NCBI GenBank assembly: GCA_018897295.1
Contig: JAHILA010000014.1
Coordinates: 67,891 to 131,890 of the forward strand
Length of the DNA stretch: 64,000 bases
DNA from: Patescibacteria group bacterium
GTDB taxonomy: Bacteria; Patescibacteriota; Minisyncoccia; RBG-13-40-8-A
Direction of reading: 5' to 3'
Made by a program: the position numbers and the translations under genes. Shown here in pieces: positions 9,948 through 60,096 of this stretch. A model generated the notes under the pieces. It was not told where the DNA came from. It ran no database searches and saw only the letters and a program-made list of their open reading frames with translations. The first letter of the stretch is position 1; each line of letters begins with the position of its first letter.

Positions 9948-11720
9948 TTACGGAATATAATATACAAAAATTGAATTGCCGATAATTGTTACTGGTTCGT
10001 ACTTATTGAGCCAGACATAGTAGTCAGTTCTTATTTCAAATCCTTTTGTCGCTATGGCGCGATTCTGCTGCAGAAAAGTTGCGGAAACAGCTAACCAGCT
10101 GTTTTTTGCTTTTTGCGGATCATAATCCGCATGCCATTCTTCAGCTTTGTCTCCTAAATAATATTTCGCATTTGCCCCGCCGAAATAATCGATTTTAATT
10201 TTCTGGATGTTATTTTTCTCAACCCATTCTGCCAGACGTTTTAAATCCTGGCCCCAGTCGAGATTGGAGTCGGTTACATATATATAACCGTTTTTAGCGC
10301 CGCCAATTAATTCGTTAAAATAAGTGAGGTAATAAGGATAGATTGATAAGGATGAAAACGCATACCATGCCAATAAAGTTCCGAGTAGCAGGCAACAAGT
10401 AATAAAAACTCTTTTTTTATTATGGATTTGATTGAATAATTTTTTTATCTGGCCAGAAACAAGAATATAAACAAATGGAAATGTAGGGAGAATATGACGT
10501 ATGCCGATATTTAAATTGCTGGTAATACTTGCGCCCCAATATATGGCTAGAAAAATCAGCATTGCAATTTCTGTAAAATGGTTTTTCAGAAAATTTTCAA
10601 CTTGCCTCGCTGGCAGGCGGGTTTTACGGAACTTAGTTTGCCAAGCCAGGAACAAAAGAGCAATAATGGTTAATATGTGTAGCACTAATGGTTCCTTTAT
10701 GGCATATACAATAGGGAAATAACTCTTCCAACCCTTATTGGTTACATCTCCCAGGAAATAAGTAGTATTTCCGCCAGTTGCTCTTTGGAAAACCATGAAC
10801 AATCCTAGGGCATACTGGGCATACGGCCTCAAAATCGGCTGTTTAGACATCCAAATTGTCAGGTCGCCGATTGGTTTTACTGGAAATTGCGAAGCAATAA
10901 AAGTTGTGTCGGAAATTTGTTTTTCTTGCGGGTAATTATAAGTATGGAACAGATAAACAGGATAAACAAGAATATAGCCGATAATCATAATCAGGGCGAA
11001 TCTAAAAATATAATGAAAAAATGTTTTCCAGAATTGTCTATTTTCCCGCCATTTGATATAGACCCAAATCAGAATCAAGATTCCAAAATAGGGGACAAGC
11101 AAAATCAAAGAGAATTTTATAAGCTGGGCAATGCCAAAAGCTATTCCTGCCCAAAACAGATTTTTCCCGTTTTGGTTCTTCAAATATTTTATGAAGAAAT
11201 AAGAGGCAAAGAAAAATGCGAAAGCAGCGCCGACATCAGTAGTAACATAACGACCGTGCGCTAGGAATGTTGGAGAAAAAGAAAAAAGGAAAACCGCAAG
11301 CAAAGCAGAAAGTTTTCCGTACAATTCTTTTGTCCAACGATAAATGAAAAAACCCAAAAGAATCAGTAGTAGAAGCATTGGAATTCTGGACCAGAAAATA
11401 ATTTTATCAGCGTTGTTATTAGATTCGTATAGAAATTTAAACCCGAAATCCCACTGACTGTTTACTTCGCTTGTCCAGGATTTTAAATCTTTCGGAAAGT
11501 TGATATCATTCATAAAAAGCGCGGGAATGGCTGATAAATCCTTCAATAAAGGCGGGTGTTCCGGATTCAAACGCATATCTTTTTGGGTTAAATAAGAATA
11601 GCCCGCAGGAGTGTGGGCAACTTCGTCCATAATCGCTGATTCCTGTTTTTGGCTGATAGTTGCCAGGACCAGCATTAATAAAACCAAAACTATAGATAAA
11701 ATTGGCGCTAATTTTTTCAT
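9948..11720 (-). CDS. GT39/ArnT/PMT-like membrane glycosyltransferase (polyprenyl-phosphate-sugar dependent)
   Basis: Multi-TM protein with a DEVAHTPAGYSY...EHPPL N-terminal loop motif typical of the ArnT/PMT_2 family; carries an in-frame GC palindrome (LPARQ). Confidence 0.7.
   Translation of the reverse strand: MKKLAPILSIVLVLLMLVLATISQKQESAIMDEVAHTPAGYSYLTQKDMRLNPEHPPLLKDLSAIPALFMNDINFPKDLKSWTSEVNSQWDFGFKFLYESNNNADKIIFWSRIPMLLLLILLGFFIYRWTKELYGKLSALLAVFLFSFSPTFLAHGRYVTTDVGAAFAFFFASYFFIKYLKNQNGKNLFWAGIAFGIAQLIKFSLILLVPYFGILILIWVYIKWRENRQFWKTFFHYIFRFALIMIIGYILVYPVYLFHTYNYPQEKQISDTTFIASQFPVKPIGDLTIWMSKQPILRPYAQYALGLFMVFQRATGGNTTYFLGDVTNKGWKSYFPIVYAIKEPLVLHILTIIALLFLAWQTKFRKTRLPARQVENFLKNHFTEIAMLIFLAIYWGASITSNLNIGIRHILPTFPFVYILVSGQIKKLFNQIHNKKRVFITCCLLLGTLLAWYAFSSLSIYPYYLTYFNELIGGAKNGYIYVTDSNLDWGQDLKRLAEWVEKNNIQKIKIDYFGGANAKYYLGDKAEEWHADYDPQKAKNSWLAVSATFLQQNRAIATKGFEIRTDYYVWLNKYEPVTIIGNSIFVYYIP
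10601..10622. repeat. GC-rich palindromic element copy (CCTCGCTGGCAGGCGGG), in frame within the GT39 gene
   Basis: GC-rich island in an AT-rich gene; encodes RLPARQ; same core as other copies. Confidence 0.5.
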
Positions 11721-11760
11721 ATAGTTTAATTATATCATCTAATGTGGTACAATAGTAGAT

Positions 11761-15305: not shown

Positions 15306-16389
15306 ACCTCAGAAATTTTCCGAGGTGATTGGCCAGGACCATGTTATAAAAACCCTGACCAGTGCTTTGAATGGCAATAAAGTTGCCCATGCTTATTTAT
15401 TTGCCGGGCCACGCGGAACAGGCAAGACCACAGTGGCTCGGCTTCTGGCAAAAGCAGTGAATTGCCAGGACAATTTCAGTTTTGAGCCGTGCAACAAGTG
15501 CGAATCCTGTTTGGAAATTATGGAAAACAGGGCAATGGACTTAATTGAAATTGACGCTGCTTCAAACAGGGGAATTGATGAAGTCCGGGAATTAAGAGAA
15601 AGAATCAGATTTGCTCCGAGTCGCGGCAAATACAAAGTTTTTGTTATTGATGAAGCGCATCAATTAACTCCAGCTGCTTTTAACGCTCTATTAAAAACAT
15701 TAGAAGAACCGCCTGCCCATGCCATCTTTATTCTTGCCACAACCGAAGCGCATAAAATGCTGCCAACCATTCTTTCGCGCGTCCAAAGATTTGATTTCAG
15801 AAAATTGTCTTTGTTGAATGTAATTAAAAAACTGGAAATGGTTGCTAAAAAAGAAGGGGTTAAAATCAGTGAGAAAGCATTAAGGATTATTGCTTTGAAT
15901 TCTGAAGGGTTTATGCGGGATGCGGAAAGTATGTTGGGGCAGGTGATTGCGTTTTCCGCCTCATCGGCGGACAAGCCCGGCGATAAGGAAATTTCCGTAG
16001 AAGATATTGAAAATATTTTGGGCATTGTTGATATTAATCTGGCAATAAAATTTATTGATTTATTGGCAAAGAAAAATTCCAGCGAAGCCTTGGGCTTTGT
16101 TGATAAATTTGTGAATCAGGGATATGATTTAGTGCAGTTTATCGAGTCATTGATAAACTATTCTAGAAAATTGATGCTTTTAAGGGTTGATAAAGACCTT
16201 TCAAAACTGATAAAAGAAGAAATAAGCGCGGAACAGTTAAATACTGCATTAAGGCAGTCAGAAGAGTTTTCTTTGGCAGAAATTTCAAAAATGATTGATA
16301 TTCTGCTTGAAACTTTATATCGCATGAAGAGTTCTTCTTTCCCGCAAATAAATATGGAATTAGCAGCAGTAGAGATTTGTAATAGGTAA
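15274..16389 (+). CDS. dnaX: DNA polymerase III gamma/tau subunit, short form
   Basis: YRPQKFSEVIGQ, GPRGTGKTT Walker A, CNKCESC zinc module, SRVQRFDF sensor motif; 371 aa lacking tau C-terminal domains. Confidence 0.85.
   Translation: MAELVIYRKYRPQKFSEVIGQDHVIKTLTSALNGNKVAHAYLFAGPRGTGKTTVARLLAKAVNCQDNFSFEPCNKCESCLEIMENRAMDLIEIDAASNRGIDEVRELRERIRFAPSRGKYKVFVIDEAHQLTPAAFNALLKTLEEPPAHAIFILATTEAHKMLPTILSRVQRFDFRKLSLLNVIKKLEMVAKKEGVKISEKALRIIALNSEGFMRDAESMLGQVIAFSASSADKPGDKEISVEDIENILGIVDINLAIKFIDLLAKKNSSEALGFVDKFVNQGYDLVQFIESLINYSRKLMLLRVDKDLSKLIKEEISAEQLNTALRQSEEFSLAEISKMIDILLETLYRMKSSSFPQINMELAAVEICNR
15955..15982. repeat. possible GC palindrome insertion in dnaX (TCCGCC-TCATC-GGCGGA)
   Basis: Perfect 6-bp-arm palindrome plus GCCCGGCG in an otherwise AT-rich gene; encodes SSADKPGD. 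Confidence 0.3.
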
Positions 16390-16404
16390 AATTGAGTTCA
16401 GTCC

Positions 16405-16475
16405 TGCCGGATCGTCTAATGGTAGGACATGGGCCTTTGAAGCCCAGTATCTAGGTTCGAATCCTAGTCCGGCAG
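16405..16475 (+). tRNA. tRNA-Gln (anticodon TTG)
   Basis: Manual cloverleaf: U1:A72, G73 discriminator, anticodon loop CTTTGAA, T-loop TTCGAAT; no encoded CCA; flanked by a 10-bp leader/trailer helix (TTGAGTTCAG / CTGAACTCAA). Confidence 0.75.
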
Positions 16476-16490
16476 GCCTGAACTCAAAAA

Positions 16491-16625
16491 ATTGTGAATC
16501 TAGGTTTGCCCGCCTAGACTCGACTCGCCTCGCTAAAGCTATGGCGAAGCGGGCGTCTAGTCGAGGCTGGAATCCAAGTCCGGCAGCACGAGTCAGCGCG
16601 TTATCGAGGCAGACCGGAGAGCATT
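16491..16625. repeat. GC-rich structured intergenic block of palindromic-element-like sequences downstream of tRNA-Gln
   Basis: GCCCGCCTAGACTCGACTCGCCTCGC ... GCGAAGCGGGCGTCTAGTCGAGGC ... GTCCGGCAG; shares GCTTCG/CGAAGC/GTCGAG/GGCGGG words with the in-gene elements. Confidence 0.5.
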
Positions 16626-16665
16626 AAAAATCGCCTTTTAGGCAATTTTTTGATAGAATAAAAAT

Positions 16666-17832
16666 ATGGATAAAAAAACAAACTTAAAAACCTTATACTT
16701 CATATCCTTTCTTTTAGCTGTCTCAACAGCTTTTCCTGCATATATTCGTTCTTCATTTATTGAAGAATTCGTAGGATTACAATGGTTAGGTATATTTTTT
16801 ATTGCAGCGATGCTTGTAAGCTTAATCGCTATTTTATTCTTTTCGGGATTAATTAAAAAATTAACTAATTATTATCTAAGCATAATAGTTCTAATAGTTA
16901 ATCTTATATCAATCATATTTCTTGTTTTAACTAGTTCTCCTTATCTTTTATTTTTATCCTTTATTCTTTTTACAGTTACTACTGTTTTAATTTGGATAAA
17001 TATGGATGTTTTTATTGAAAGTTGTTCTTTAGATCGTACAACCGGCAAAACAAGAGGCGTTTATTTTACTGTTCTTAATTTTGGATGGGTAATATCTCCT
17101 TTATTAGCTGGTTATTTAATCGGAAACAATAATTATCGTTTAACTTTTATTGTTGCCGGTTTGTTATTAATACCTGTTGTTTTTACTTTATTGATAAAGA
17201 AAAAGCAATTAAAAGATAATTGTGAATACGAGCATCATAATATTTTGTATGTATTTAAGAAATTTCTAAAGAACAAAAATTTAAAAGGAATATTCTTTAT
17301 TGCTTTTTTACTGCAGCTCTTTTTTGCTGTCATGACTATCTATGTGCCAATATATTTGAACCAATATTTAGGTTTTAGCTGGTCCACGATAGGAATTATG
17401 TTTACTTTTATGCTTTTGCCTTACATTTTTTTAGAGCTACCTGCTGGGATTGTTGCTGATAAGCATTTTAGAGAAAAAGAAATATTGATTGTTGGTTTTT
17501 TAATCTTGATAGCTAGTTGCGCTTTATTCTTTTTTACTAAATCTACTAGTGCTATTGTCTGGGCGTTAATATTATTTTTAAGTAGATGCGGAGCTGCTTT
17601 AATTGAGATAATGAGAGAAACATATTTCTTTAAGGTTGTAGATGTTCAACATATCGATTTTATTAATTTTCTTCGCACTAGCGGACCATTATCTTTTATA
17701 TCAACAATGATTTTATTTACATTACTTCTTAATTTTTTTGCAATTCAATATTTATTTATTTTTGTAGCCATTATTCTTCTTTCTGGCATCTATTTTGCTT
17801 GGGGGTTAAAGGATACGAAGCAATTAGGCTAA
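16666..17832 (+). CDS. MFS-type transporter
   Basis: About 12 TM segments and a GKTRGVYFTVLNFGWVISPLLAGYL MFS-like loop motif; very AT-rich coding sequence. Confidence 0.6.
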   Translation: MDKKTNLKTLYFISFLLAVSTAFPAYIRSSFIEEFVGLQWLGIFFIAAMLVSLIAILFFSGLIKKLTNYYLSIIVLIVNLISIIFLVLTSSPYLLFLSFILFTVTTVLIWINMDVFIESCSLDRTTGKTRGVYFTVLNFGWVISPLLAGYLIGNNNYRLTFIVAGLLLIPVVFTLLIKKKQLKDNCEYEHHNILYVFKKFLKNKNLKGIFFIAFLLQLFFAVMTIYVPIYLNQYLGFSWSTIGIMFTFMLLPYIFLELPAGIVADKHFREKEILIVGFLILIASCALFFFTKSTSAIVWALILFLSRCGAALIEIMRETYFFKVVDVQHIDFINFLRTSGPLSFISTMILFTLLLNFFAIQYLFIFVAIILLSGIYFAWGLKDTKQLG

Positions 17833-17916
17833 CCAGCCCAGAATATAAAAAAGTAATCAAGATCCCAAATTTTGGTGATTGGATTGTATAAATCCGGATT
17901 AAGGGCTAAAATAAAG

Positions 17917-18031
17917 TTATGCCCCGTAGTGAATTTTTGACTGGTCCGACGTCCGTCGGACCAAAATACTACAGGCATACATAATGATTAATTTTTAATT
18001 AGTCAAAAATCTACTACAGGGTATGAGTGTG
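17917..18031 (+). repeat. inverted-repeat leader element copy 1 (upstream of tyrS), ends at the start codon
   Basis: TTATGCCCCGTAGTGAATTTTTGACT ... TTAATTAGTCAAAAATCTACTACAGGGTATG; near-identical copy at 52931-53012; contains an internal perfect palindrome GGTCCGACG-TC-CGTCGGACC. Confidence 0.6.
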
Positions 18032-20387: not shown

Positions 20388-21553
20388 TGTTAAAATTCCC
20401 AGAAAATTTTTATTGGGGCACAGCTACATCTGCATATCAAGTGGAAGGAGGGATAAAAAATGATTGGACCTGCCTTGCCGGCAGGCAGGGTGTAGCCGGG
20501 GAAAAATTTGATGCTGGAATTTGTTGCGACCATTACAATCGGTTTGAAGAGGATTTTAATTTAGCAAAAGAGATAAATAATAATGCCCACCGATTTTCAA
20601 TTGAGTGGGCTCGTATTGAACCCGAGAAAGGAAAATTTGACCAAAAAGAAATTGAGCATTACAGAAAAGTAATTTTGGCGCTTAAAGAAAGAGGGCTGGA
20701 GCCGTTTGTGACTTTGTATCATTGGACTCTGCCTGTTTGGTTTGCTGAGAAGGGCGGGCCTGCCTCGCCGAGTCAAGGCGGGTGGTTGAATAAAGACGCA
20801 CCAAAAGATTTTGAAAAATTTGTTGAGAAAATAATATTAGAGTACAAGGATTTAGTTAAGTTTTGGATTACTTTAAATGAGCCGAATGTTTATGTTTCGC
20901 ATTGTTATTTGCGCGGCGACTGGCCGCCATTCGAGAAAAATTACAGCAATTCCCAAAAGGTTTTAAACCAGTTGGTCGAAGCGCATAAATTAGCTTATAA
21001 AAAAATTCACGAAATCTCTCCTCGTGCTATAGTCGGCATAGCTAAGAATAATATTTGGTATCGCGGTATCATAGAATTAGTTTTAAATTATAAATGGAAT
21101 CATTGGTTTTTAAACGAGATTAAGAATTATCAGGATTTTATTGGTTTAAATTTCTATTTTAGTTCTTCTTTTTTAAATTTTATTTTTAAAAACAGGAATG
21201 TTAGTGATCTTGGATGGGGAATTGTGCCAGAAGGGATTTATCACGTTTTAAAAGATTTGAAAAAATACCAGAAACCGATTTACATTACGGAAAACGGCTT
21301 GGCTGATGCCAAGGATGAAAAACGGGCAAAATTCATTATTGAGCATTTAAAATGGGTTCATAAAGCAATTGGAGAAGGAGTTGATGTGCGCGGATATTTC
21401 CATTGGTCGTTATTGGATAATTTTGAGTGGGATAAAGGATTTGAGCCACATTTTGGCTTGATTGAAATTGATTATAAAACTCTTCAACGAATTCCGCGCC
21501 CAAGCAGTAAGGTTTACGCGGGAATTTGTAAGAATAATGGAATAAATTTATGA
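20387..21553 (+). CDS. glycoside hydrolase family 1 beta-glucosidase
   Basis: YQVEGG, TLNEPN (acid/base Glu) and YITENG (nucleophile Glu) GH1 motifs; contains two in-frame GC palindromes. Confidence 0.8.
   Translation: MLKFPENFYWGTATSAYQVEGGIKNDWTCLAGRQGVAGEKFDAGICCDHYNRFEEDFNLAKEINNNAHRFSIEWARIEPEKGKFDQKEIEHYRKVILALKERGLEPFVTLYHWTLPVWFAEKGGPASPSQGGWLNKDAPKDFEKFVEKIILEYKDLVKFWITLNEPNVYVSHCYLRGDWPPFEKNYSNSQKVLNQLVEAHKLAYKKIHEISPRAIVGIAKNNIWYRGIIELVLNYKWNHWFLNEIKNYQDFIGLNFYFSSSFLNFIFKNRNVSDLGWGIVPEGIYHVLKDLKKYQKPIYITENGLADAKDEKRAKFIIEHLKWVHKAIGEGVDVRGYFHWSLLDNFEWDKGFEPHFGLIEIDYKTLQRIPRPSSKVYAGICKNNGINL
20468..20500. repeat. GC palindrome copy (CCTGCCTTGCCGGCAGGCAGG) in frame in the GH1 gene
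   Basis: Encodes CLAGRQGVAGE; CCTGCC/GGCAGG arms. Confidence 0.55.
20752..20785. repeat. GC element copy (GGGCGGGCCTGCCTCGCCGAGTCAAGGCGGGTGG) in frame in the GH1 gene
   Basis: Encodes GGPASPSQGGW; shares GAGTCAAGGCGGG with the copy at 25568. Confidence 0.55.
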
Positions 21554-45567: not shown

Positions 45568-45629
45568 AGAGAATCTTTGTTGCCAAATTAATTTTGTGCT
45601 ATAATTAATTATGTTATAATTAAATTAAA

Positions 45630-45678: not shown

Positions 45679-45703
45679 AATTAAGAATTAAAATTATTTT
45701 ATT

Positions 45704-46372: not shown

Positions 46373-46383
46373 TAATAGAGGAC

Positions 46384-46412
46384 TTGACACGCGATTTTTT
46401 ACCATTTACAAT
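46384..46412 (+). promoter_or_regulatory. candidate 23S rRNA promoter
   Basis: GAGGACTTGACA-N17-TACAAT about 200 nt upstream of the 23S 5' end. Confidence 0.55.
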
Positions 46413-47136
46413 GGTAGTGTTGTTAGTTTATATGAGAAAAAACCAAAAACAATTTATAAAAAAGAGCGGTTGATAAAACCAGGTATTTTCATACCCGTGG
46501 ATGTCAAACCGCTAAAAGCGGTTTTTTCAATCCTGAACTTTGAAAATTGAATATGTATAGCAAGTAATAAAAGTAATAATAAGTAGTAGTATCTATAAAT
46601 TGCCAGCTATATTAAGCAGGTTATATATTAAGGGTGTATGGTGGATGCCTTGACATTAGAAGACGAAGAAGGACGTGGCGTAACTGCGATAAGCCTCGGG
46701 GAGGTGTGTAGCGACCTTAGATCCGGGGATGTCCGAATGGGGAAACCCAATATAGTGATAAACTATATTATCCCGACTTTATTGTTGGGAGGTGAACTCG
46801 GCGAAGTAAAACATTTCAGTAGCCGGAGGAACAGAGAAAAACTTTATTCCCCAAGTAGTGGCGAGCGAAAAGGGAAGAGCCCAAACCTGATGGTCCCGCA
46901 TTTGTGGGATTATTAGGGGTAGTAAGATAGTGACGTCGGGAGAAATCCCGGGGAGTGAATACAAAACTAAGACTTCCTTAGTTGAAAGGGATGGAAAGCC
47001 CTACCGAAGAAGGTAATAGTCCTGTAAGCGAAAAGGGTCTTATACTCCTAGTCATTAATCTTGAGTACCGCGAGAACATGCAGTCTCGCGGGAATCATCC
47101 TGAACTATCTAGGAAAGGCTAAATACTTCTAATGAT

Positions 47137-47175
<39 letters not shown>

Positions 47176-48447
47176 GCCCGACAAGGGCAGTGAAATAGTA
47201 CCTGAAATCATACACTTACAAAGAGTCGGAGCCCCGCATTAGCGGGGTGACGGCGTGCTTTTTGCAGAACGAACCAACGAGTTTACCGTAGACTGTTTTG
47301 TCTAAGTCCGTAAAGGACGGAGGCGTAGGGAAACCGAGTGTTAATAGCGCGTTTTATAACAGTATGCGTAAGACCCGAAGCCAGGTGAGCTACCCATGGC
47401 CAGGATGAACCCCGATGAAAATCGGGGGGAGGTCCGAACCCATCGGCCGTGCAATACCGTGGGATGAGCTGTGGGTTGGAGTGAAAAGCTAATCGAACCT
47501 GGTAATAGCTGGTTCTCCTCGAAATATGTTTAGGCATAGCCTCTTATTTTTCTCCTTAGGGGTAGAGCACTAAATGGGCTGAGGTGGCGCAAGCCTACTC
47601 ACTCAATTAAACTCCGAATACTAAGACAGATAATAAGGGAGTAAGACTGTGGGGGCTAAGCTCCATAGTCAAAAGGGAAACAGCCCAGATCGTCATCTAA
47701 GGTCCCAAAACTAAGTTAAGTGGGAAAAGAAGTGCCTCGTCTTATACAGATGGGATGTTGGCTTAGAAGTAGCCATCATTTAAAGAGTGTGTAATAACTC
47801 ACCATTCTATTTATGACGAAGTGCGCTGAAAATGTAACGGGGCTCAAACTTAGTACCGAAGATACGAATTTCTCTCCGATTTATCGGAGAGGAGTGGTAG
47901 AGGAGCATTTCTTGTGCTGTGAAGTCATTTCGTGAGGAATGGTGGAGCGCAAGGAAGAGAGAATGTTGGTATGAGTAACCGCAAGTCTGATGCGAAATCA
48001 GACCACCGAAAGCCCAAGGATTCCTTGGCAATGTAAATCAACCAAGGGTTAGGCGGGCCTAAGGCAATCCCGAAAGGGGTAGTCGATGGACAGTCGGTTA
48101 ATATTCCGACCCTTCTGTATTTTTTTATGGAGTGACGGAGTTTAGTAGATAGGGCAGATTATTGGATTTTTGTCTGTATATTAAGAAGCTAGGCTAGGTA
48201 AATCCGGTTTAGAATACTTCAAGATATGCAGGAAGTTTCGATTTCGATCGGGATTACCCTATTGAGCAGACTTCCAAGAAAAACTTCTAAAATAAGAATA
48301 CAGGATCCGTACCGCAAACCGACACAGGTGGGCAGGGCGAGAAGCCCAAGGTGAACGGGTTAACCCTCGTTAAGGAACTCGGCAAAATAGCGGCCGTAAG
48401 TTCGCAATAAGGCCTTCCCCCGCTTAGCGGGGGACGCAGCTAAAGAT

Positions 48448-48478
<31 letters not shown>

Positions 48479-49347
48479 CCTGCTAACTCGTAAGAGGATG
48501 TATAGGGGCTGACACTTGACCAGTGCTGGAAGGTTAATGGTGGGGGTGTCTCGACCTTGCGTCGGGATGCTCACTGCTTGAAGCCCCAGTGAACGTCGGC
48601 GATAACTATAATCGTCCTAAGGTACCGAAATTCCTTGGCATGTAAGTTATGTCCTGCAGGAAAAGTGTAACGACTGGAGAACTGTCTCAACGAGGAGCCC
48701 GGTGAAAATGCAGTGTCAGTGAAGATGCTGACTACCTGCGACAAGACGAAAAGACCCCAGGAGCTTTACTATAACTTGGTATTGTTTTAATGTTTTTGAT
48801 GCGTAGCGTAGACGGTAGGATTTGAAGGTCGCCTCTCGGGGCGGCTGGATCCGACAATGAAACACCGTTCTTTAAAAATGTTAAAACTAACCCCTCCGTA
48901 ACAGAGAGGGACAGTGCCAGGCGGGTAGTTTTAGTGGGGCGCTAGCCTCCTAAAGAGTAACGGAGGCGTTTATTAAGGTCGACTAGCTCCGGATGGAAAT
49001 CGGAGTGATAGTGTAAAGGCAAAAGTCGGCTTTACTGCAAGACTGACAGGTCGCGCAGTTGCGAAAGCAGAACTTAGTGAACCGACTCTGGTTAATAGAA
49101 TCGGAGAAGATCATCGGACAAAAGCTACCCTGGGGATAACAGGCTGGTAGGCGCTAAGAGTTCATATCGACGCGTCTGTTCGGCACCTCGATGTCGGCTC
49201 ATCTCATCCTGGAGGTGGAGAAGCTTCCAAGGGTTTGGCTGTTCGCCAATTAAAGAGGTACGTGAGCTGGGTTCAAACCGTCGTGAGACAGGTTGGACTC
49301 CTATCTGTCGTAGGCGTAGATACTTGAGAGACTTTGTCCCTAGTAAG

Positions 49348-50104
49348 AATATTGCTACTTCACGAAGTAATTCGTGATGACAATGTGGCTTATAACGGTG
49401 AAGTCTTAATAAAATATGGTCTATTGATAATCATTATTGCATCGGTCCAATAATAATGATACAATTTAATTGAGGACCAGATAATTATTAAGATAATACC
49501 GTGGGAAGTCGATCTAAAATTAATTATGCGTATATTGCAGGATTTCTTGATGGTGATGGAAGTTTAATGTTTCAAATCAAAAAACGGAAAGATGGCAAAT
49601 CTAAAATAAGATTTATGCTGACTATCTGTTTTTATCAAGATTCTAGACATGCAAAACCACTATACTGGATTAAAAGAGTTTTGAGGATAGGTTATATCTC
49701 AAAACGTAAAGACGGAATTACTGAATTAAGGATTAACGGTTTTAAGCAGATTAAGGATATAGTGGGGAATTTAATTCCATTTATCAAATTTAAGAAAGTC
49801 CAAGCAAAAGCAATATATAGCGCTGCGAATCTTTTGAATTGTGTAAAAAACAAGGATTTATCTGAGAAAGATTTACACAGGTTAATAAATTATATTCTGG
49901 TGATTCAGAATAATAATTATGTGACCAAAAAAAAGAAGACTAAAAAAGATTTGTTAAAGATTTTAGATTTGACCCCGTAACGACTTGATCCGATTTCCAT
50001 CGGATCGGAGTTCAGTAGAAATACTGAGCTAATACGCCACTACCCTAATTCCGATTAACGTCGGAATGGGTAAAGATATAGTCTGCGCACATAGTGATAT
50101 GTGA
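49348..50104 (+). mobile_element. intron (probably group I) in 23S rRNA carrying a homing endonuclease gene
   Basis: Insertion between exon sequences CCCTAGTA and CGAGAGGACC; contains the LAGLIDADG ORF; boundaries approximate. Confidence 0.6.
49501..49980 (+). CDS. LAGLIDADG homing endonuclease (intron-encoded)
   Basis: YIAGFLDGDGSLMF LAGLIDADG motif; 159 aa, single-motif type; located inside the 23S gene. Confidence 0.85.
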   Translation: MGSRSKINYAYIAGFLDGDGSLMFQIKKRKDGKSKIRFMLTICFYQDSRHAKPLYWIKRVLRIGYISKRKDGITELRINGFKQIKDIVGNLIPFIKFKKVQAKAIYSAANLLNCVKNKDLSEKDLHRLINYILVIQNNNYVTKKKKTKKDLLKILDLTP

Positions 50105-50405
50105 TAACGTGACGAGAGGACCGGGATGAACAAACCTCTGGTGTACCAGCTGTCCTGCCAAGGGCACTGCTGGGTAGCTATGTTTGGCAGAGATAAATGC
50201 TGAAAGCATATAAGCGTGAAACTCTTCTCAAGATTAAGTATCATAGATTCCTTGAAGACTACAAGGTTGATAGGCTTCAGGTGTAAGTCCTGTAAAGGAT
50301 TTAGCCGAGAAGTACTAATAAATCATTTTGCCTGTTTAATACGGCTGGCAATTTTTGGACACTACACTTTAAAATAATTTTATTTGCAACAAACAAGATT
50401 GCGGT

Positions 50406-50528
50406 CATTGTAAGGGGGTTATACTTGGGGTGCTCCACCTGATCCCATTCCGAACTCAGAAGTGAAATCCTTAAAGGCCGATGGTACCCCGATGAACTTC
50501 GGGGAAGAGTAGGTGACCCTCCTACAAT
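50406..50528 (+). rRNA. 5S ribosomal RNA
   Basis: CCACCTGATCCCATTCCGAACTCAGAAGTGAAA and GGCCGATGGTACCCCG...GGGGAAGAGTAGG conserved blocks. Confidence 0.75.
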
Positions 50529-52176: not shown

Positions 52177-52929
52177 ATGAATCCATATACTAAAAAACAA
52201 TTTATTATCGGATTGGTGTGGGTGGTGATTTTTGCGATTATCATTGGCGGGATTTATTTATTGATAAAATCAGAAACTCCCCCTGTTAATAATGGAAATC
52301 AAAACGAACCAAAGGAAGATTTAATTATTTTATCCCAATCTTTTATTCTGACTACGGAAAATAATTTTGACTTGGTTGCTAAAATTAAAAATTCCAATAA
52401 TGAATGGGCAGCCGAGTCATTTACTTATGTTTTTAACTTATACGACAGCGCTAATCAGTTGATTGGTTCGCGACAAGGTAAATCATACATTCTGCCACAA
52501 GAAACAAAATACATTATTGAACAGAAAGTTTCTTCGCAAAAATCAATCTCAAAAATCGAATTAAAAATTAGTAATGTCTACTGGGGAAAAATAAGCCAAT
52601 TAGGAGGCCTAGAATTAAGAGTGAAAAATACAGAATACCAAATATTGGAAGATGGCAGCAATCTGTTTACAGGCACAGTGGAAAATAAAAGCAGTTATGA
52701 TTTAGACACTATAGAAGTTGCCGGAGTTTTGCTCAATGAAAATAATGAGATTATTGCTGCTGGTAAAACCTCAATGAACACAGTTTTAAGAAATGAGAGC
52801 AGGGGATTTGAAATTTTTTGGCCTTATCCTATTGCGCAGGAAACCAAATCGTTTGACGCCAGGGCTTATACTAATATTTTTTTGAATGACAATTTTATCA
52901 AAACCCAGGGCGAACCGCCAAAAGAATAA
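52177..52929 (+). CDS. membrane-anchored/secreted hypothetical protein
   Basis: N-terminal TM, then a soluble domain without recognisable motifs. Confidence 0.4.
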   Translation: MNPYTKKQFIIGLVWVVIFAIIIGGIYLLIKSETPPVNNGNQNEPKEDLIILSQSFILTTENNFDLVAKIKNSNNEWAAESFTYVFNLYDSANQLIGSRQGKSYILPQETKYIIEQKVSSQKSISKIELKISNVYWGKISQLGGLELRVKNTEYQILEDGSNLFTGTVENKSSYDLDTIEVAGVLLNENNEIIAAGKTSMNTVLRNESRGFEIFWPYPIAQETKSFDARAYTNIFLNDNFIKTQGEPPKE

Positions 52930-52930
52930 A

Positions 52931-53012
52931 TTATGCCCCGTAGTGAATTTTTGACTGATGCTACGGGCATCAAAATAATTTTTAATTAGTCAAAAATCTA
53001 CTACAGGGTATG
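52931..53012 (+). repeat. inverted-repeat leader element copy 2 (upstream of ftsW/rodA), ends at the start codon
   Basis: ATTATGCCCCGTAGTGAATTTTTGACTGATGCTACGGGCATC...TTAATTAGTCAAAAATCTACTACAGGGTATG; matches 17917-18031. Confidence 0.6.
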
Positions 53013-54119: not shown

Positions 54120-54148
54120 TTGACAATCTTTTTAAGTGTGTGTAGGAT
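54120..54148 (+). promoter_or_regulatory. sigma70-like promoter (TTGACA-N17-TAGGAT) preceded by hairpin CCCGCA-ACT-GCGGGG
   Basis: GCGGGGTTGACAATC context as in the other promoters; upstream of the 54186 gene. Confidence 0.55.
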
Positions 54149-54154
54149 ATTAGC

Positions 54155-54170
54155 GTAAGAAAAATCTTAC
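54155..54170 (+). promoter_or_regulatory. 16-bp perfect palindrome GTAAGA-AAAA-TCTTAC between the -10 box and the SD (candidate operator or 5' stem-loop)
   Basis: Identical copy at 63824-63839 in the same position relative to another consensus promoter. Confidence 0.5.
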
Positions 54171-54185
54171 AAAAGGAGGAGAAAA

Positions 54186-54638
54186 ATGTATCTTAAAAAA
54201 ATCTTTTTTGTTCTTTTTCTGGTTTTGTTCGTCGTGATGTTCTCTGTTGACTGCAAAGGCGAGCAGTCCGAAGTCGGAGAAAAAGCCCAGTTCGTCGAGA
54301 GAAGCGACGCAAAAGTGTGGCGTGGAGAAATTATGGCCACCCCAATTCGTTGTTTTGGACCATATGCCAAAATCAAAGTGAAAAATCCGGTCGATAACCA
54401 GGATTATCAATTTCAACTTGAGGTCATTTATAAAGCTAATAATGGCCCGGCGCGGATTGGTCTTCAAAACCTGAATGTGGGTGACGAAATTTTGTTTTTT
54501 AAAACTTTCGTCATTGCCAAGACCAAAGAGAGGGCGATGTATTGCCCTATTGGTATCTATTATTCTTATTCTCTTCGTTATAGAGGAGAATCCATTATCA
54601 ATGGCCATAAAGTCGCCAATCCTCCGAAAAAGAAGTGA
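54186..54638 (+). CDS. secreted/lipoprotein-like hypothetical protein
   Basis: SD AAAAGGAGGAG; hydrophobic N-terminus ending in VDC; chosen over the antisense ORF 54150-54647; GC content above the local average. Confidence 0.55.
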   Translation: MYLKKIFFVLFLVLFVVMFSVDCKGEQSEVGEKAQFVERSDAKVWRGEIMATPIRCFGPYAKIKVKNPVDNQDYQFQLEVIYKANNGPARIGLQNLNVGDEILFFKTFVIAKTKERAMYCPIGIYYSYSLRYRGESIINGHKVANPPKKK

Positions 54639-54657
54639 GGAGCACAATGTTCCAACA

Positions 54658-54693
54658 CGCCCCTGCGTTATTTTCCGCGTAGGGGCTTTTTTA
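54658..54693 (+). terminator. Rho-independent terminator
   Basis: CGCCCCTGCG...CGCGTAGGGGC followed by TTTTTT. Confidence 0.55.
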
Positions 54694-54698
54694 TTTTC

Positions 54699-54726
54699 TT
54701 GACAAACTTTATGGATATACTATAAT
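54699..54726 (+). promoter_or_regulatory. near-consensus sigma70 promoter TTGACA-N16-TATAAT
   Basis: Directly upstream of the candidate sRNA. Confidence 0.6.
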
Positions 54727-54732
54727 GGAAAT

Positions 54733-54936
54733 AACAATCAAGGCAGTTCGCAACCAGTATAGGCTGGTGTGCCTAAAACTTTCTACTGTATGTAAAAATT
54801 TCATCCCCCCATGGTCCGGCATGCGAGACCGCGGTATGTTGCGAACCGTACTACTCTCGCCCCTGGACCAGATTATTCTATTTGTTCTTTTCTTCTGCTC
54901 TTTTGGAAAACCCGCCTAACCGCGGGCTTTTTATTT
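54733..54936 (+). ncRNA. candidate ~200-nt small RNA (identity unknown; 6S-like long irregular hairpin possible)
   Basis: Consensus promoter upstream and intrinsic terminator CCCGC-CTAAC-GCGGG-TTTTT downstream; long-range complement GCAGTTCGCAACC / GGTTGCGAAC; the 64-aa ORF here has no SD and odd composition. Confidence 0.4.
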
Positions 54937-55022
54937 ATTCCAAAAAGGCGTATAATAAGGGTGTCTTAAATATTCATTTTTTTTAAAGAGGTTGGAAAAG
55001 GGAAAACAATAAAAATTATTTT

Positions 55023-55583
55023 ATGAACGGACAAAATAAAACAGTTTATGTATTTATAGACGCATCAAATGTTTGGAATGCGGTTAAGTCGGTAAAAAAG
55101 TTTATTGAATACAAAACTCTTAAAGATTATTTTAGGAAAAATTTTAACGCAGACAAGGTTGAAATTTTTTATTATGACGCCTATCCAAAAACCGGAACAA
55201 GAGATTATGATTTGGATGGAAAGCATAAATTCTTTACTTATCTTAAAAAGGGGCTTGGTTTTACCGTAAGAAAAAAAGAATTAAAAAGAATCTCTGTTAT
55301 TAGCGAGAGCGGAGAATCTATTATAGAAAAAGGAAATATGGATGTGGAAATAACGATTGACGCAATGCATAACATTCATAAATATAATATAGCCATTTTT
55401 TTTAGCGGCGACGCTGATTTTCTTGCGCTGGTGAATTATTTGAAAAACGGCGGCAAAAAGGTTTATATCTTTTCGTCAGAAGATAATATTTCTCACGAAC
55501 TAAAAACTGGCGGGGATGGTTATTTTGATTTGAAAGATATACATGAATTTTGGGGTAAAGATTTAAAACATCGTGTAAAATGA
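55023..55583 (+). CDS. NYN-domain (LabA/DUF88-like) protein
   Basis: VFIDASNVWN, GNMDVEITIDAM, SGDADFLALV motifs. Confidence 0.6.
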   Translation: MNGQNKTVYVFIDASNVWNAVKSVKKFIEYKTLKDYFRKNFNADKVEIFYYDAYPKTGTRDYDLDGKHKFFTYLKKGLGFTVRKKELKRISVISESGESIIEKGNMDVEITIDAMHNIHKYNIAIFFSGDADFLALVNYLKNGGKKVYIFSSEDNISHELKTGGDGYFDLKDIHEFWGKDLKHRVK

Positions 55584-55885
55584 TAATATATAAACGAAAG
55601 TCACCCTCAATTAAGAGGGTGACCCTTGGATGTATAACCCTAACAGTTCTATGGATAGAACCGAAAGACATTATCAGTATAGATAAATTAATTAGGTAAG
55701 TCAATAGCAAGTTATCCACAGGTAAAAATAAAAACTAATAAAAATAAATTTATGGATAATAAAATAAAAAAATTGAGAGGAGCGAATGCGGTCTTGAATA
55801 TGAAGATATATTATTGTGTTCTTATCCAACAAAATTAAAAAGATAATTAAGGAAAATGCGGGGCTTGTCCCGCGCAGTCGAGGGG

Positions 55886-55914
55886 TTGACGATAATTTAA
55901 TAAAAGAGTAGTAT
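55886..55914 (+). promoter_or_regulatory. sigma70-like promoter preceded by a hairpin and the GAGGGG motif
   Basis: GCGGGGC-TTGT-CCCGCGC AGTCGAGGGGTTGACG-N17-TAGTAT. Confidence 0.5.
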
Positions 55915-55949
55915 AAAAACATCTGCCAAAGGCAGATAAGGAGGAAAAA

Positions 55950-56096
55950 ATGACTGGAGAATGGTTTTTTTTCGGGGTTGGGTTTATTGTTTTCATATCG
56001 GTTCTTATTTTCTTCGTTGGAAGGAATGTAGGAAAGGAAATCAAGGACCTGAAAAAAACTCCTCAAAATAAATCTTTTGAGGATGGACCAGAATGA
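55950..56096 (+). CDS. small single-TM membrane protein (48 aa), weak TatA-like resemblance
   Basis: 5'UTR hairpin ATCTGCC-AAA-GGCAGAT then SD AAGGAGG; hydrophobic N-terminus and an amphipathic GKEIKDLKK tail; below the ORF-track cutoff. Confidence 0.4.
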   Translation: MTGEWFFFGVGFIVFISVLIFFVGRNVGKEIKDLKKTPQNKSFEDGPE

Positions 56097-56521: not shown

Positions 56522-56809
56522 ATGGCAAAAATTATTTTTAAAATTATGAAGGCAGGGGAGAAAGGACGTTCGGAAGTTGAGATAATTCTGGAAACCCGCC
56601 GCAAGCAAAGCAAGCAGGCGGGCCCGTCAAAATACAAAGTTTTTGTCCGGGACACTGATGAAGTACTTTCTGCGCTTGACACGCTATTAAAAAGGAGTAA
56701 AATAGGATTAGAGTCAGTAAAAGATATTAAAATAGAGACTCATAAAGAAGCAGGGCTTACCTCTACGAGGATAATAAAATCAATTGTAAAAGCCCTTTGC
56801 TTCCTCTAA
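56522..56809 (+). CDS. hypothetical protein (95 aa); coding status uncertain
   Basis: Internal ATG of the ORF-track 56279-56809; contains a GC palindrome (RRKQSKQAGPS) and promoter-like TTGACA boxes; may instead be rpoB leader. Confidence 0.3.
   Translation: MAKIIFKIMKAGEKGRSEVEIILETRRKQSKQAGPSKYKVFVRDTDEVLSALDTLLKRSKIGLESVKDIKIETHKEAGLTSTRIIKSIVKALCFL
56594..56626. repeat. GC palindrome copy (CCCGCC-GCAAGCAAAGCAAGCAG-GCGGGC)
   Basis: Sister copy of 60058-60093. Confidence 0.55.
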
Positions 56810-56910: not shown

Positions 56911-59900
56911 ATGATTAAATATTTTTCAAACTATCCGAAAAAATTATATCCTCTTCCAAACTTAGTTGAAATTCAACTTAATAGTTATAAATTATTTTTA
57001 GAAAAAGGATTGAGGGAACTCTTTGATGAAATATCTCCTATCGTCGATTACGGCGGTAAGGATATTTCTTTATATTTTAAGGAATATTATCTGGATGAGC
57101 CCAAATGTGATGAGATAAAGGCCAAAAAAAATAGTCTTTCCTACGAAGCGCCTTTAAAAATTAAATTAAAATTAGTCAATAAAAAAGCGAACGAGACAAA
57201 GGAACAGGAGATTTTTCTCACTGATTTGCCTTTGATTACTCCCCGCGGAACATTCATTGTCAACGGAGTGGAAAGAGTTGTTATTTCCCAGTTGATAAGG
57301 TCCGCGGGTGTTTTTTTTAAGACAAGTTATATAAAAGGAAGGAAAGTGCATGGCGCAAAAATCATTCCGAACCGAGGCGCTTGGCTGGAATTTGACACAG
57401 AAGCAAACAATTCAATTGTTGTGCGTATTGACAGAAAAAGAAAAATTCCAGCAACAGCATTGCTTAGAATTTTTGGTTTGGATACTGATGAGAAAATTCT
57501 CAAGGAATTCAAAGACATTGACAATGATGCTGATATTCAATATATAAAAGAAACTCTGGCCAGGGATACTTCCAAAACATCCGACGACGCCTGGATTGAA
57601 ATTTACAAAAGAATCAGGCCAGGCGATTTGGCTGCTATTGATAATGCAAGACAGCTGATTGAAAATATGTTTAAGAATTTCGACAGATATGATTTATCGG
57701 AAGTCGGTCGTTATAAATTAAATCAGAGAATAGGAATTAAGACTCCACTGGACCCAGGACACAGGATTTTAAGAAAAGAAGACGTGGTTGCAACTATAAA
57801 AGAAATTATTAAATTGAATAATGATCCGGATTTGGTCGGAGATGATATTGACCATTTGGGAAATAGGCGCGTGAGGTCGCTGGGAGAACTTTTGCAAAAT
57901 AAATTCAGAGCAGGCATGGCGCGGGTGATCAGAATTATTAGAGATAGAATGAGTACCATGGACGCTTATAATTTAGCTCCTGCGCAACTTGTTAATTCCA
58001 GGCCGCTTATGGCAGCAGTCAAAGAATTTTTCACATCATCGCAATTATCCCAGTTTATGAATCAGGTAAATCCTTTGTCAGAACTGGAGCATAAAAGAAG
58101 ATTGTCAGCCATGGGCCCCGGAGGCCTAACCAGAGAAAGAGCGGGATTTGAAGTCCGCGATGTGCATCCCTCCCATTATGGAAGAATTTGTCCTATTGAA
58201 ACTCCAGAAGGCCCGAATATTGGTTTGGTTGGCCATCTGGCAAGTTATGCCAAAATTAATGATTATGGATTTATAGAAACTCCATACAGAAAAGTTGAAA
58301 ACGGAAAGGTGACAAATAAAATTGTCTATATGGGCGCTTCTGAAGAGGAAAAATACAATATTGCTCATGCAGGCATTGTTCTGGAATCCAGTGGTCGCAT
58401 GAAAGAGAAAAGAGTTGAGGCAAGAATTCATGGCGAGCCGGGAATTATAGAACGAGACAAGATTGACTGGATGGACGTTTCGCCATACCAGTGTATTAGT
58501 ATTGCTACTGCTTTGATTCCTTTTGTTGAACACGATGATTCAAACCGCGCATTGATGGGTTCAAACATGCAGAGGCAGGCAGTGCCATTGGTTAATCCAG
58601 AAGCGCCGCTCGTCGGCACCGGAATCGAAAGGAAAGCAGCTGTGGATTCAGGCCAGGTAATGCTTTCACCAAGCGACGGAGTAATCAAAGGCGTCGATGC
58701 TTCCCGTATTACTATTTCTTCAAAAGGAACTTTAAAAACTTATCCTTTAAATAATTATTTGCGTTCTAATGAGTATACCTGCATTCACCAGAGGCCGATA
58801 GTCAGGCCTGGCCAGAGAGTTAAGAAAGGCGATGTTATTGCTGACAGTTCTTCAACTCAGGATGGCGAACTGGCTTTAGGGCAAAATCTTCTGGTGGCAT
58901 TTATGTCCTGGTCAGGAGCTAATTTTGAAGACGCAATCGTGCTTTCGGAAAAATTGGTTAAAGATGACAGATTCAGCTCTATTCATATTGAAGAATTTTC
59001 CTGCGATGTGCGTGATACAAAACTTGGGCCGGAAATAACCACTCCTGATATTCCTAATGTCGGCGAGGACAGGTTAAAGGACTTAGATGAGGAAGGTATT
59101 GTTAGAATCGGCGCTGAAGTCGGGCCGGATGATATTTTAGTAGGCAAGATTTCACCTAAAGGCGAAACTGATTTGACTGCGGAAGAAAGATTATTGAGAG
59201 CAATTTTCGGGGATAAAGCCAGAGATATCAAAGATACTTCATTAAGATTGTCCCATGGCAAGCGCGGAAGAGTGGTCGGCATTAAAATTTTCTCAAGAGA
59301 CAAAGGCGACAAACTGCAGGCCGGAGTAATCAAGACAATACAGGTTGAAGTTGCCCAATTCAGAAAAGTTTCCATTGGCGACAAGCTGGCAGGCAGGCAC
59401 GGAAATAAAGGAGTTATTTCTAAAATTCTGCCTGAACAGGATATGCCGTATCTGGCAGACGGAACTCCGGTTGATGTTGTTTTGAATCCTTTGGGAGTTG
59501 CTTCACGTATGAATCTCGGGCAAATATTGGAAACTCATTTGGGATGGGCAGCAAAAACTTTAGGATACAGGACTTACAGTCCTCCGTTTTCAGGCGTGAC
59601 TGAGGAAGAAATCAGAGGGGAATTGAAAAAAGCCGGATTGCCGGAAAGCGGAAAAGTCATTTTACGCGATGGCAGGACCGGCGAACCGTTTATCAATAAA
59701 GTTACGGTCGGTCAGATTTACATCATGAAATTGAATCACTTGGTTGAGGATAAAATTCATATGCGTTCAATCGGCCCTTATTCATTGATTACCCAGCAGC
59801 CGCTCGGGGGAAAGGCTCAATTCGGAGGCCAGAGATTCGGAGAAATGGAAGTGTGGGCATTGGAAGGATATGGCGCAGCGCATACATTGCAGGAAATGCT

Positions 59901-60096
59901 GACTATAAAATCCGATGATGTTATTGGCCGCGCTAATGCTTATGATTCAATTATTAAAGGCAGGCCGATTCAGGCGCCTCATTTGCCTTCATCTTTTAAT
60001 GTTTTATTAAGCGAAATAAGATCGCTTGGATTCGCGATTAATTTAGTAAAAGATAAACCCGCCGCAAGTCCAAAGGACAAGCAGGCGGGCAGGTAA
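56911..60096 (+). CDS. rpoB: DNA-directed RNA polymerase beta subunit
   Basis: Conserved blocks: [30 protein letters not shown], fork and rifampicin-cluster regions; C-terminal 12 aa and the stop lie in a GC palindrome. Confidence 0.95.
60058..60093. repeat. GC palindrome copy (CCCGCC-GCAAGTCCAAAGGACAAGCAG-GCGGGCAGG) forming the rpoB 3' end
   Basis: Encodes [12 protein letters not shown]-stop; 1-nt spacer to the rpoC ATG. Confidence 0.55.

Follow-up and report, generated by a model that had tools for sequence, protein, structure and literature searches.

The 64,000-nucleotide stretch of DNA analysed here (the window) comprises positions 67,891 to 131,890 of contig JAHILA010000014.1 from a Patescibacteria group bacterium. 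According to gene identification by Pfam, it carries a core gene set of a Portnoybacteria-like patescibacterial genome, together with a split set of rRNA genes and three tRNA genes. The window has a G+C content of 37.6%, and scattered over it are short hairpin-forming segments, of which those inserted into genes show 62–89% G+C. A first-pass annotation had proposed that such dispersed GC-rich hairpins are present in frame within essential genes. Comparison with related genomes bore this out, identifying eighteen lineage-specific segments, and the main type, a palindromic unit of 20 to 21 nt termed family 1 below, was additionally traced through other bacteria and phages.

The inserts were called from syntenic DNA of three relatives by global protein alignment followed by nucleotide alignment. 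Relative J is a 482-kb JGI contig (loci L002, L170 and L370) whose proteins are mostly 81–97% identical to those of the window, and the closest relative, E, derives from ENA sample ERZ27256828 (loci L169 and L371; mostly 85–98% identical proteins outside GH1). Both were obtained through protein searches and contig look-ups; a metagenome scan with the RpoB C-terminus missed them. The third, more distant relative (L003 and L004, from two separate sequencing runs; proteins 55–87% identical) covers gatB, miaB-miaA, thrS, dnaE, rpmF, nusB and rpsP, the remaining inserts being compared with the two close relatives only. The alignment of the S16 tail with L003 was too divergent for scoring.

We identified eighteen in-frame, stop-free and lineage-specific GC-rich events, which represent nearly every internal indel of at least six codons between the window and its relatives (Table 1). 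Their host genes are dnaX, the GH1 gene (two events), a radical-SAM gene (two), a DUF5667 gene, gatB (two), miaB-miaA (two), thrS, dnaE, rpmF, nusB, rpsP, a hypothetical gene, the tail of rpoB, and rpoC. The genes miaB and miaA are fused in this genome into a single gene of 623 codons (30709–32580), and the fusion is kept in L002 and L003. The net lengths of the events are 18, 21, 24, 27, 30 or 42 nt, the units of 18–42 nt encoding 6–14 residues, and AT-rich indels of similar size were encountered only twice (in hyp194 and as the RNVSDLGW segment of GH1). At least 18 of the approximately 22 elements in the window are intragenic. Twelve of the eighteen events had been among 13 in-gene items listed by the first-pass annotation, which had missed those in dnaX, the DUF5667 gene, miaB-miaA (31990–32016), nusB, the hypothetical gene and rpoC. 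The thirteenth item, an "LPARQ" insertion in GT39, was rejected because the protein has the same length of 590 aa as in relatives E and J, and the patch of about 57 nt is merely divergent. All 22 segments tested for folding yielded negative z values against composition-matched mononucleotide shuffles, 13 of them with p ≤ 0.05.

Table 1. Coordinates and properties of the GC-rich segments in the window (z, folding z value; strand as recorded for the segment).
Feature	Position	Strand	Segment	Relatives or context	z
dnaX insert ASSADKP	15955–15978	+	21-nt GC-rich hairpin	clean 21-nt nucleotide gap in L169 and L170	−1.9
GH1-a CLAGRQGVAGE	20469–20503	-	family-1 unit CCTGCCTTGCCGGCAGGCAGG (20469–20489) plus altered flank	gap of 21 nt vs. 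L169, 30 nt vs. L002/L170	−2.2
GH1-b GGPASPSQGG	20753–20785	+	family-1/2 composite GGGCCTGCCTCGCCGAGTCAAGGCGGG	24-nt nucleotide gap vs. L002 and L170; not in L169 protein	−0.2
radical-SAM-a LGPDRGPD	25231–25254	+	GC-rich hairpin, core GACCGCGGTC	24-nt gap vs. L002	−1.8
radical-SAM-b ..SFASQGG	25570–25605	+	family-2 hairpin patch, net +21 nt; word GAGTCAAGGC	gap vs. L002, adjacent host bases replaced	−2.4
DUF5667 gene QPRVARVEAG	25940–25975 (approx.)	+	family-2-like hairpin, net +27 nt; word GAGTCGAGGC	gap vs. L002	−1.1
gatB site 1 LPAGRQG	29215–29235	+	family-1 unit	not in L002	−4.0
gatB site 2 DLPAGRQ	29529–29549	+	canonical family-1 21-mer CCTGCCTGCCGGTAGGCAAGG	not in L002, L003
miaB-miaA QPTADHPQG	31990–32016	-	27-nt double hairpin	not in L002, L003	−4.2
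miaB-miaA linker doublet	32212–32252	.	two family-1 units head-to-head CLAGRQACLPARQ; perfect palindrome of about 40 nt; dG −41.5	42-nt gap vs. L002, L003	−9.8
thrS PAEARGAKA	34143–34169	-	27-nt nested GC-rich hairpin, altered flanks	not in L002, L003	−1.2
dnaE PASPAGG	35048–35068	+	family-1 unit CCCGCCTGCCGGCGAGGCAGG, antisense, net +18 nt	not in L002 (DnaE 95% identical)
rpmF (L32) tail AMPTGRQ	37830–37850	-	family-1 21-mer CCATGCCTACCGGCAGGCAGG	clean 21-nt gap vs. L002, L003
nusB NFARGRD	37950–37970	+	older 21-nt hairpin	common to window and L002, not in L003
rpsP (S16) tail	39383–39412	+	30-nt hairpin CTCCGAC-GCCCGC-TGAA-GGCGGG-GTCGGAG	not in L002; L003 tail too divergent to score	−2.5
hypothetical gene	56594–56629	+	family-3 hairpin CCCGCCGCAAG..CAAGCAGGCGGGC, net +24 nt	not in L371, L370	−3.8
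rpoB last 12 codons	60058–60093	+	36-nt family-3 hairpin	common to L371 (RpoB 97% identical); 21-nt Lys-rich tail in L370	−5.1
rpoC PTQGGSDSGG	61868–61897	+	24-nt GC-rich insert plus altered 18-nt flank; weak hairpin	not in L371, L370	−0.7
GT39 RLPARQ patch	10601–10624	-	family-1-like word CCCGCCTGCCAGCGAGGCAAG	no net insertion	−0.8
intergenic hairpin	39888–39904	+	GCCCTGCCAAGGCGGGG; shares word CAAGGCGGG	directly after stop of KH-domain gene	−3.5
intergenic imperfect hairpin	45636–45677	+	CCTGCCTGC..GGCGGGCAGG	between murC-like and channel genes	−2.9
GC-rich patch of hairpin words	16500–16640	+	no Rfam match	intergenic, 3′ of tRNA-Gln	−1.5
hairpin near 16S gene	43676–43712	+	GCTTCGACTCGCGAAGC plus nearby GC-rich words	downstream of 16S gene

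To define the repeat families, we counted 9-mers of high G+C content, leaving out the rRNA and tRNA genes; a generic repeat finder drowned in AT-rich chance repeats. The commonest of these words were CCTGCCTGC with nine and CTGCCTGCC with seven occurrences, and the word GAGTCAAGGC is common to GH1-b and to the radical-SAM copy at 25593. Eight hairpins of the type CTGCC-N3-9-GGCAG were observed, compared to 0.09 expected from dinucleotide shuffles. The words AGGCAGG (24 observed, 5.5 expected) and GAGTCRAGGC (3 vs. 0.04) and the hairpin CCCGCC-N10-30-GGCGGG (2 vs. 0.01) were overrepresented as well, both copies of the last sharing 11-nt and 13-nt ends. Three of the word families suggested by the first reading of the sequence were far above chance, while the proposed GCTTCG..CGAAGC family is weak because it is represented by one exact hairpin only (43678–43694).

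Family 1 has the consensus CCTGCCTGCC-(GGTA/GGCRA)-GGCAGG and is sharply bounded at about 21 nt, its archetype being the perfect 20-nt palindrome CCTGCCTGCCGGCAGGCAGG. The aligned copies of the window read CC(T/C)GCCTGCC-(GGTA/GGCGA/AGCGA/GGCAA)-GGCA(G/A/T)GG; there are about eight in the 64 kb and more in the adjoining 9 kb. A comparison of compensatory base pairs among diverged copies was uninformative, as a palindrome pairs with its own opposite strand. The 9.3 kb directly upstream of the window contain further copies within secA, whose product has 852 aa compared to 809 aa in J, and the family-1 word of dnaE (CCCGCCTGCCGGCGAGGCAGG) recurs identically there. The unit is translated in the sense direction as LPAGRQ(G) in both gatB sites and in GT39 of relative E, in the antisense direction as CLAGRQ or MPTGRQ in GH1, L32 and one half of the miaB-miaA doublet, and in another antisense frame as PASPAG in dnaE and GH1-b. 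The sole sense frame that was not observed is the one containing TAG. The use of one word in two or more frames and in both orientations marks it as a DNA element rather than a peptide motif, and this is the pattern expected if such an element lands in any frame and selection removes the copies that break the protein.

In the clean events, excision of the 21-mer restores the host codon (slashes indicate the insertion points): GACGA/T at gatB site 2, TTTGA/C on the opposite strand of the L32 gene (codon G/TC), and AATAA/T in GT39 of relative E, for which the empty alleles read AATGA/T. The L003 copy at gatB site 1 leaves GGGGA/T after excision, whereas the mutated copy of the window gives GAA or GAT, depending on the choice of boundary. 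The 5′ flanks of the clean events end in A, and in GA in three of four cases. No target duplication was present in these events, and a fixed target-site duplication was rejected for them.

The inserts could in principle be ancestral segments that were precisely deleted in the relatives, or peptides that arose by selection at the protein level. The more distant relative L003, however, lacks the inserts in gatB, miaB-miaA, thrS, dnaE and rpmF, gatB site 1 being the exception, and the nusB insert is missing from it as well. Among 120 GatB homologs, seven contain the peptide of site 1 and two that of site 2, while about 110 show neither. Relative E does not contain the dnaX, GH1, hypothetical-gene and rpoC inserts and carries instead a private LPAGRQG insert in GT39; J and L003 exhibit private GC-rich inserts as well, indicating that the process is recent and independent on each branch. 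Some sites show a less simple distribution: the nusB copy is common to two genomes, and the unit at gatB site 1 is found at the identical position in L003 and in the distant homologs P0004, P0026, P0063 and P0115, but the site is empty in the closer relative L002. Either precise loss or recombination occurs, therefore, or this site has been hit repeatedly. Although these two cases would suit an ancestral origin, the segments are missing from over 100 homologs and from the more distant relative. Together with the recurrence of identical nucleotides across frames, strands and genes, in intergenic DNA, in other phyla and in phages, this makes ancestry highly improbable.

Every sequence compared is a contig assembled from metagenomes or raw sequencing runs, and an assembly or sequencing artefact was therefore considered. 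The inserts are in frame and embedded in long contigs with unique flanks, however, and both gatB inserts recur in a 99% identical sequence from ENA (P0002). L003 and L004 come from separate runs, and copies are present in cultured isolates of Olivibacter and Terrimonas. We regard the chance of an artefact as negligible.

AlphaFold modelling of GatB (mean pLDDT 81.7) placed the two inserts in coils of low or moderate confidence, at residues 122–145 (pLDDT below 50) and 232–246, the latter forming a loop that joins a helix and a strand. The GatB inserts, GatB alone having been modelled, would accordingly be surface peptides remote from catalytic sites, in the manner of the Rickettsia palindromic elements (RPE). 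The C-termini of RpoB are variable in general, and that of one relative ends in ...AMPTGRQAGK, representing a family-1 copy. A second recurrent C-terminal motif, KSRPQSGSRQRSGK or variants of it, is seen in the RpoB homologs P0251, P0253, P0257, P0266, P0280, P0262 and P0289, which may be the translation of another hairpin family targeting the 3′ end of rpoB.

Family 1 is not confined to this genome. The exact 18-mer CCTGCCTGCCGGTAGGCA was detected in at least 120 stretches of contigs representing one genome per species, with about 17 chance matches estimated for the 596 Gb searched. Among the matches listed are the cultured Bacteroidota Olivibacter oleidegradans and Terrimonas, many Bacteroidota and Ignavibacteria assemblies, at least nine lineages of Patescibacteria, and contigs labelled as Nitrospiraceae, Chloroflexi/Chloroflexota, Planctomycetes, Omnitrophota, delta- and gamma-proteobacteria and Stahlbacteria. 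The base composition around the listed copies shows sharp edges of the form [G/A]CCTGCC...GGCAGG[G] and is random beyond. About 19% of the listed exact copies lie in long open frames, mostly read as LPAGRQ, and about 81% lie outside. The core was present in two of 80 rpoB loci (an unbiased set of 1.2 Mb), indicating a patchy distribution in bursts. In L056, L078, L086, L094 and L139, one copy occupies the loop of a second (CCTGCCTGCCG-unit-GTAGGCAGG), and other copies are found in the loops of inverted repeats unrelated to the element, among them a stem in L095 that resembles a terminator. Stems of 6 bp or more flank 11% of the listed copies compared to 1.5% of the controls. In loci L022, L025, L054, L090, L163, L079 and L118 from other phyla, the 21-mer is often inserted into another small widespread module, CCCTCTCC-N4-GGAGAGGG followed by GGGGTGAGG, which suggests a wider set of co-occurring mini-hairpins.

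Viral contigs were scanned with a 17-mer that did not require the 5′ CCTG, and 44 stretches were recovered, about half of which carry the CCTG extension anyway. With the loop left free, the perfect palindrome CCTGCCTGCCGGCAGGCAGG is the commonest form in these contigs. One contig, identified as a true phage by its genes for terminase, capsid and portal, contains doublets of both the direct and the inverted kind as well as a tandem array of eleven or more units, and a second phage contig of 98.5% identity exhibits an empty site at the position of this array. The unit of the tandem array in phage L045 is identical to the L32 insert of the window (CCATGCCTACCGGCAGGCAGG), and inverted doublets as in miaB-miaA occur in phages L012 (632–673) and L041. 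Curated collections of plasmids and phages yielded nothing beyond matches at chance level in GC-rich replicons. Rfam contains no matching family, as judged from a scan of the window at gathering thresholds and from scans by E value that covered element-rich loci and the flank of tRNA-Gln, which gave only sub-threshold miRNA-like hairpin noise. Literature searches on the peptides, the DNA words and the topic retrieved no description of the element. Because family 1 extends to isolates of Bacteroidota, to numerous further phyla and to phages, describing it as a patescibacterial counterpart of the RPE would be an understatement.

Some copies are placed as would be expected if hairpins were retained for host use, e.g., as terminators, RNase sites, protein-binding sites or uptake signals, without being selfish: a T-run follows the direct doublet in phage L012, resembling a terminator, as does the stem occupied in L095, and the intergenic copy at 39888 directly follows a stop codon. 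Most copies in the window genome are located amid essential coding sequences, however, where a terminator would be harmful, and their positions differ between genomes with 85–98% identical proteins. The occurrence in two of 80 rpoB loci fits bursts rather than a conserved function, and the arrival of the copies is not explained by any host use. We therefore consider this explanation very unlikely.

We conclude with a probability of about 0.8 that the segments are mobile-type insertions of miniature GC-rich palindromic repeats, which are recent in the lineage and not ancestral. A new family of miniature palindromic mobile repeats is the best reading. Copies would land anywhere, whether as single copies, inverted doublets, nested copies or tandem arrays, and those surviving within genes would be the ones with a length that is a multiple of three, without a stop codon and in a tolerant loop, linker or tail. 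Because of their G+C content of 60–90%, the copies are translated as short peptides rich in Gly, Pro, Ala, Arg and Gln, such as LPAGRQG. Since the element has no coding capacity, it was presumably copied by something acting in trans. Our favoured, although doubtful, guess is a nuclease recognising the folded single-stranded hairpin, similar to HUH enzymes such as the tyrosine transposases associated with repetitive extragenic palindromes (RAYT), which might be encoded elsewhere or delivered by a phage or other mobile DNA. Nesting, doublets and arrays are compatible with recognition of the element as a folded single strand and with its copying in trans, and copying of a repair type would likewise agree with the replaced flanks and the variable repeats.

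Several observations weigh against this conclusion. As already stated by the first-pass annotation and supported by the Pfam-annotated proteins, no transposase is encoded in the window; a RAYT (Y1 HUH) gene was found neither there nor in the fetched flanks, and no recurrent neighbour protein emerged among the 120 listed loci when their 1,230 open reading frames (ORFs) were clustered all-against-all. Some segments fold only weakly (e.g., GH1-b, ThrS, RpoC and GT39). The orientation of the copies in the window is approximately 4:4 on one replichore, as defined by GC skew, which gives no support to lagging-strand targeting in the style of IS200/IS605. Nor does this reading account for the identity of the 20-nt sequence across phyla, and the occupancy of gatB site 1 departs from the order of relatedness. 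Moreover, the host bases next to the insert are replaced in radical-SAM-b, thrS, rpoC, the rpoB tail and GT39, which are thus better called GC-rich patches. The segments are absent from the relatives as expected for insertions, but several are patches of this kind, which would be more readily produced by gene conversion or patch repair than by a simple transposition. Finally, flanking direct repeats of at least 6 nt accompany 8.3% of the listed copies from other phyla, compared to 0.7% of the controls; their length is variable, which distinguishes them from the footprint of a classical transposase.

The latter observations would suit filler that is templated during the repair of breaks or during ectopic gene conversion, in which short stretches are copied from other GC-rich hairpins via template switching or microhomology without a dedicated transposase. 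This process would yield insertions, replaced neighbouring bases, inverted doublets and tandem arrays, and it agrees with the enriched direct and inverted repeats around the copies, with the lack of a transposase in the window and the listed loci, and with the phage array starting beside a host CCTGG that resembles the start of the element. Nevertheless, the canonical unit keeps identical sharp boundaries in unrelated genomes and in the clean 21-nt events, whereas untargeted filler is expected to be ragged and out of phase, and the identity across phyla would still need a common donor. We therefore consider filler unlikely as the source of the segments, though it is the strongest of the competing explanations.

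Beyond the preferred reading of mobile-type insertions, the 20-mer family has a considerable probability of being a cosmopolitan element that has escaped description. In its widest form, which we hold tentatively and at slightly less than even odds, this proposal regards CCTGCCTGCCGG(C/T)AGGCAGG as a new mobile palindrome of miniature size and cosmopolitan distribution, among the smallest mobile DNAs known, which moves within and between phyla and phages. It would insert without target duplication, often into hairpin loops or its own copies, thereby building doublets and arrays, and its bursts in Patescibacteria would rewrite surface loops of core proteins of replication, transcription and translation.

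Copies outside of genes had also been noted by the first-pass annotation, and hairpins are indeed present next to tRNA-Gln, after the 16S gene and between other genes (Table 1). The acceptor stem of this tRNA-Gln (16404–16478), CTGCCGG/CCGGCAG, resembles the arms of the family-1 hairpin, which we take as a coincidence. A segment of about 1.5 kb following the tRNA gene (16480–17900) is private to the window genome and contains the hairpin patch and a gene for an MFS transporter, while tyrS starts about 31 nt after tRNA-Gln in L169 and a small DUF4234 gene occupies the place in L170. The flank of tRNA-Gln is a typical tRNA-adjacent integration spot. Directly upstream of tyrS and ftsW, there is a near-identical repeat (17914–18025 and 52928–53012; 37 nt at 100% and a further 38 nt at 89%), which may represent a promoter or leader that was duplicated, or else mark the junction of a rearrangement.

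The rRNA region (42086–50525) consists of the genes for 16S rRNA, a small Cys-rich ORF (approximately 43834–43991), tRNA-Ile, tRNA-Ala, a Mur-ligase on the opposite strand, a mechanosensitive channel, 23S rRNA, a LAGLIDADG endonuclease and 5S rRNA, in this order. The LAGLIDADG ORF (49501–49980; region 49343–50381) follows the 23S gene, whose end was defined by Rfam, and precedes the 5S gene; a 51-nt inverted repeat (46570–46620 and 50331–50381) brackets it together with the 23S gene. It is present in L371 at 97% identity, and no ortholog was found in the fetched stretch of L370, which may stop short of the rRNA region. The ORF looks like an rRNA-associated homing-endonuclease insertion. Promoter-like pairs (TTGACA ... 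TATAAT-like) were noted at 40706–40745 and 41805–41844, preceding an NYN-domain gene and the 16S gene, and at 54120–54172 and 63785–63837. One NYN protein is encoded at 40843–41436 and another at 55023–55583; for the latter and for hyp165 (54150–54647), the two ORFs checked in the region 54150–56066, no ortholog was found in the fetched stretches of L371 and L370.

If the preferred reading is true, the smallest and most streamlined bacterial genomes tolerate bursts of selfish hairpins in rpoB, rpoC, dnaE, dnaX, secA, gatB, thrS and ribosomal protein genes, and such bursts would be a fast source of lineage-specific protein loops. The inserts create spurious length variation in marker proteins, which can mislead alignments and phylogenies of uncultured lineages, and the peptides LPAGRQG, MPTGRQ and CLPVGR or the 20-mer itself provide a searchable marker for recent insertion activity in metagenomes. 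They also raise the question of which agent copies a palindrome of 20 nt precisely to its ends in Bacteroidota, Patescibacteria and phages, the answer to which could reveal a new hairpin-recognising nuclease or recombinase.

Among known systems, miniature inverted-repeat transposable elements have terminal inverted repeats derived from insertion sequences, a fixed-length target-site duplication and a size of 50–500 bp. The element differs from them by its unit of 20–21 nt and its clean events without duplication, variable direct repeats occurring elsewhere in a minority of the listed copies. DNA uptake sequences are species-specific 9- to 12-mers that occur about once per kb and accumulate by point mutation, while the element arrives as whole-unit indels, spans phyla and is rare in the relatives sampled. 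The RPE, reportedly described by Ogata et al. in 2000, are closer. RPE-1 measures about 100–150 bp and encodes 30–50 residues, and the RPE are not known outside Rickettsia. As had been suggested initially, the parallel holds for in-frame, mobile-type palindromes that are absent from orthologs: both systems consist of palindromic repeats in reduced AT-rich genomes, lie in frame within essential genes, add surface peptides and show no obvious transposase. The element has much smaller units than RPE-1, and a kinship to the RPE in sequence is not expected.

Repetitive extragenic palindromes (REP) and their doublets (REPIN) share with the element a size of 20–40 nt, a GC-rich palindromic sequence without coding capacity, inverted doublets forming larger hairpins and an in-frame location of some copies. 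REPs are present in many copies, and the element, with about eight family-1 copies in the 64 kb, may be so too. GTAG- or CGTC-tagged REPs are intragenic in some species, where they lie in frame, often in replication and repair genes and tRNA synthetases, and appear as extra residues compared to orthologs (Di Nocera et al. 2013, PMC3733652); RPE-4 and RPE-6 have been equated with CGTC REPs (PMC3733652). The inverted doublets in miaB-miaA and in phages L012 and L041 resemble REPINs, which does not imply that the doublet is the replicating unit. In contrast to REPs, the element lacks a terminal GTAG or CGTC tag, its ends being the sharp edges given above, and GTAG is limited to the variant with GGTA, where it is part of the loop. 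REPs are mainly extragenic and their families specific for species or genera, whereas the element is mostly intragenic in this genome, its 20-mer is identical across phyla and phages, and no RAYT gene accompanies it in the window or the fetched flanks. The GC clusters of yeast and fungal mitochondria form in-frame polymorphic insertions in var1, occur singly and in tandem arrays and merge into composites, their mobilising mechanism being unresolved; they have terminal direct repeats (AG/TAG) read as target duplications and are bypassed in translation in one yeast (PMC8811140). The likeness to the element, i.e., short GC-rich palindromes inserted in frame into an AT-rich genome as singles and arrays, is one of behaviour only. 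GC clusters are organellar, whereas the element is bacterial, with clean events lacking an AG/TAG duplication and with neither a sign of translational bypass nor a need for it. Without sharing the defining features of any of them, the element resembles REPs and REPINs, RPE and GC clusters in its behaviour.

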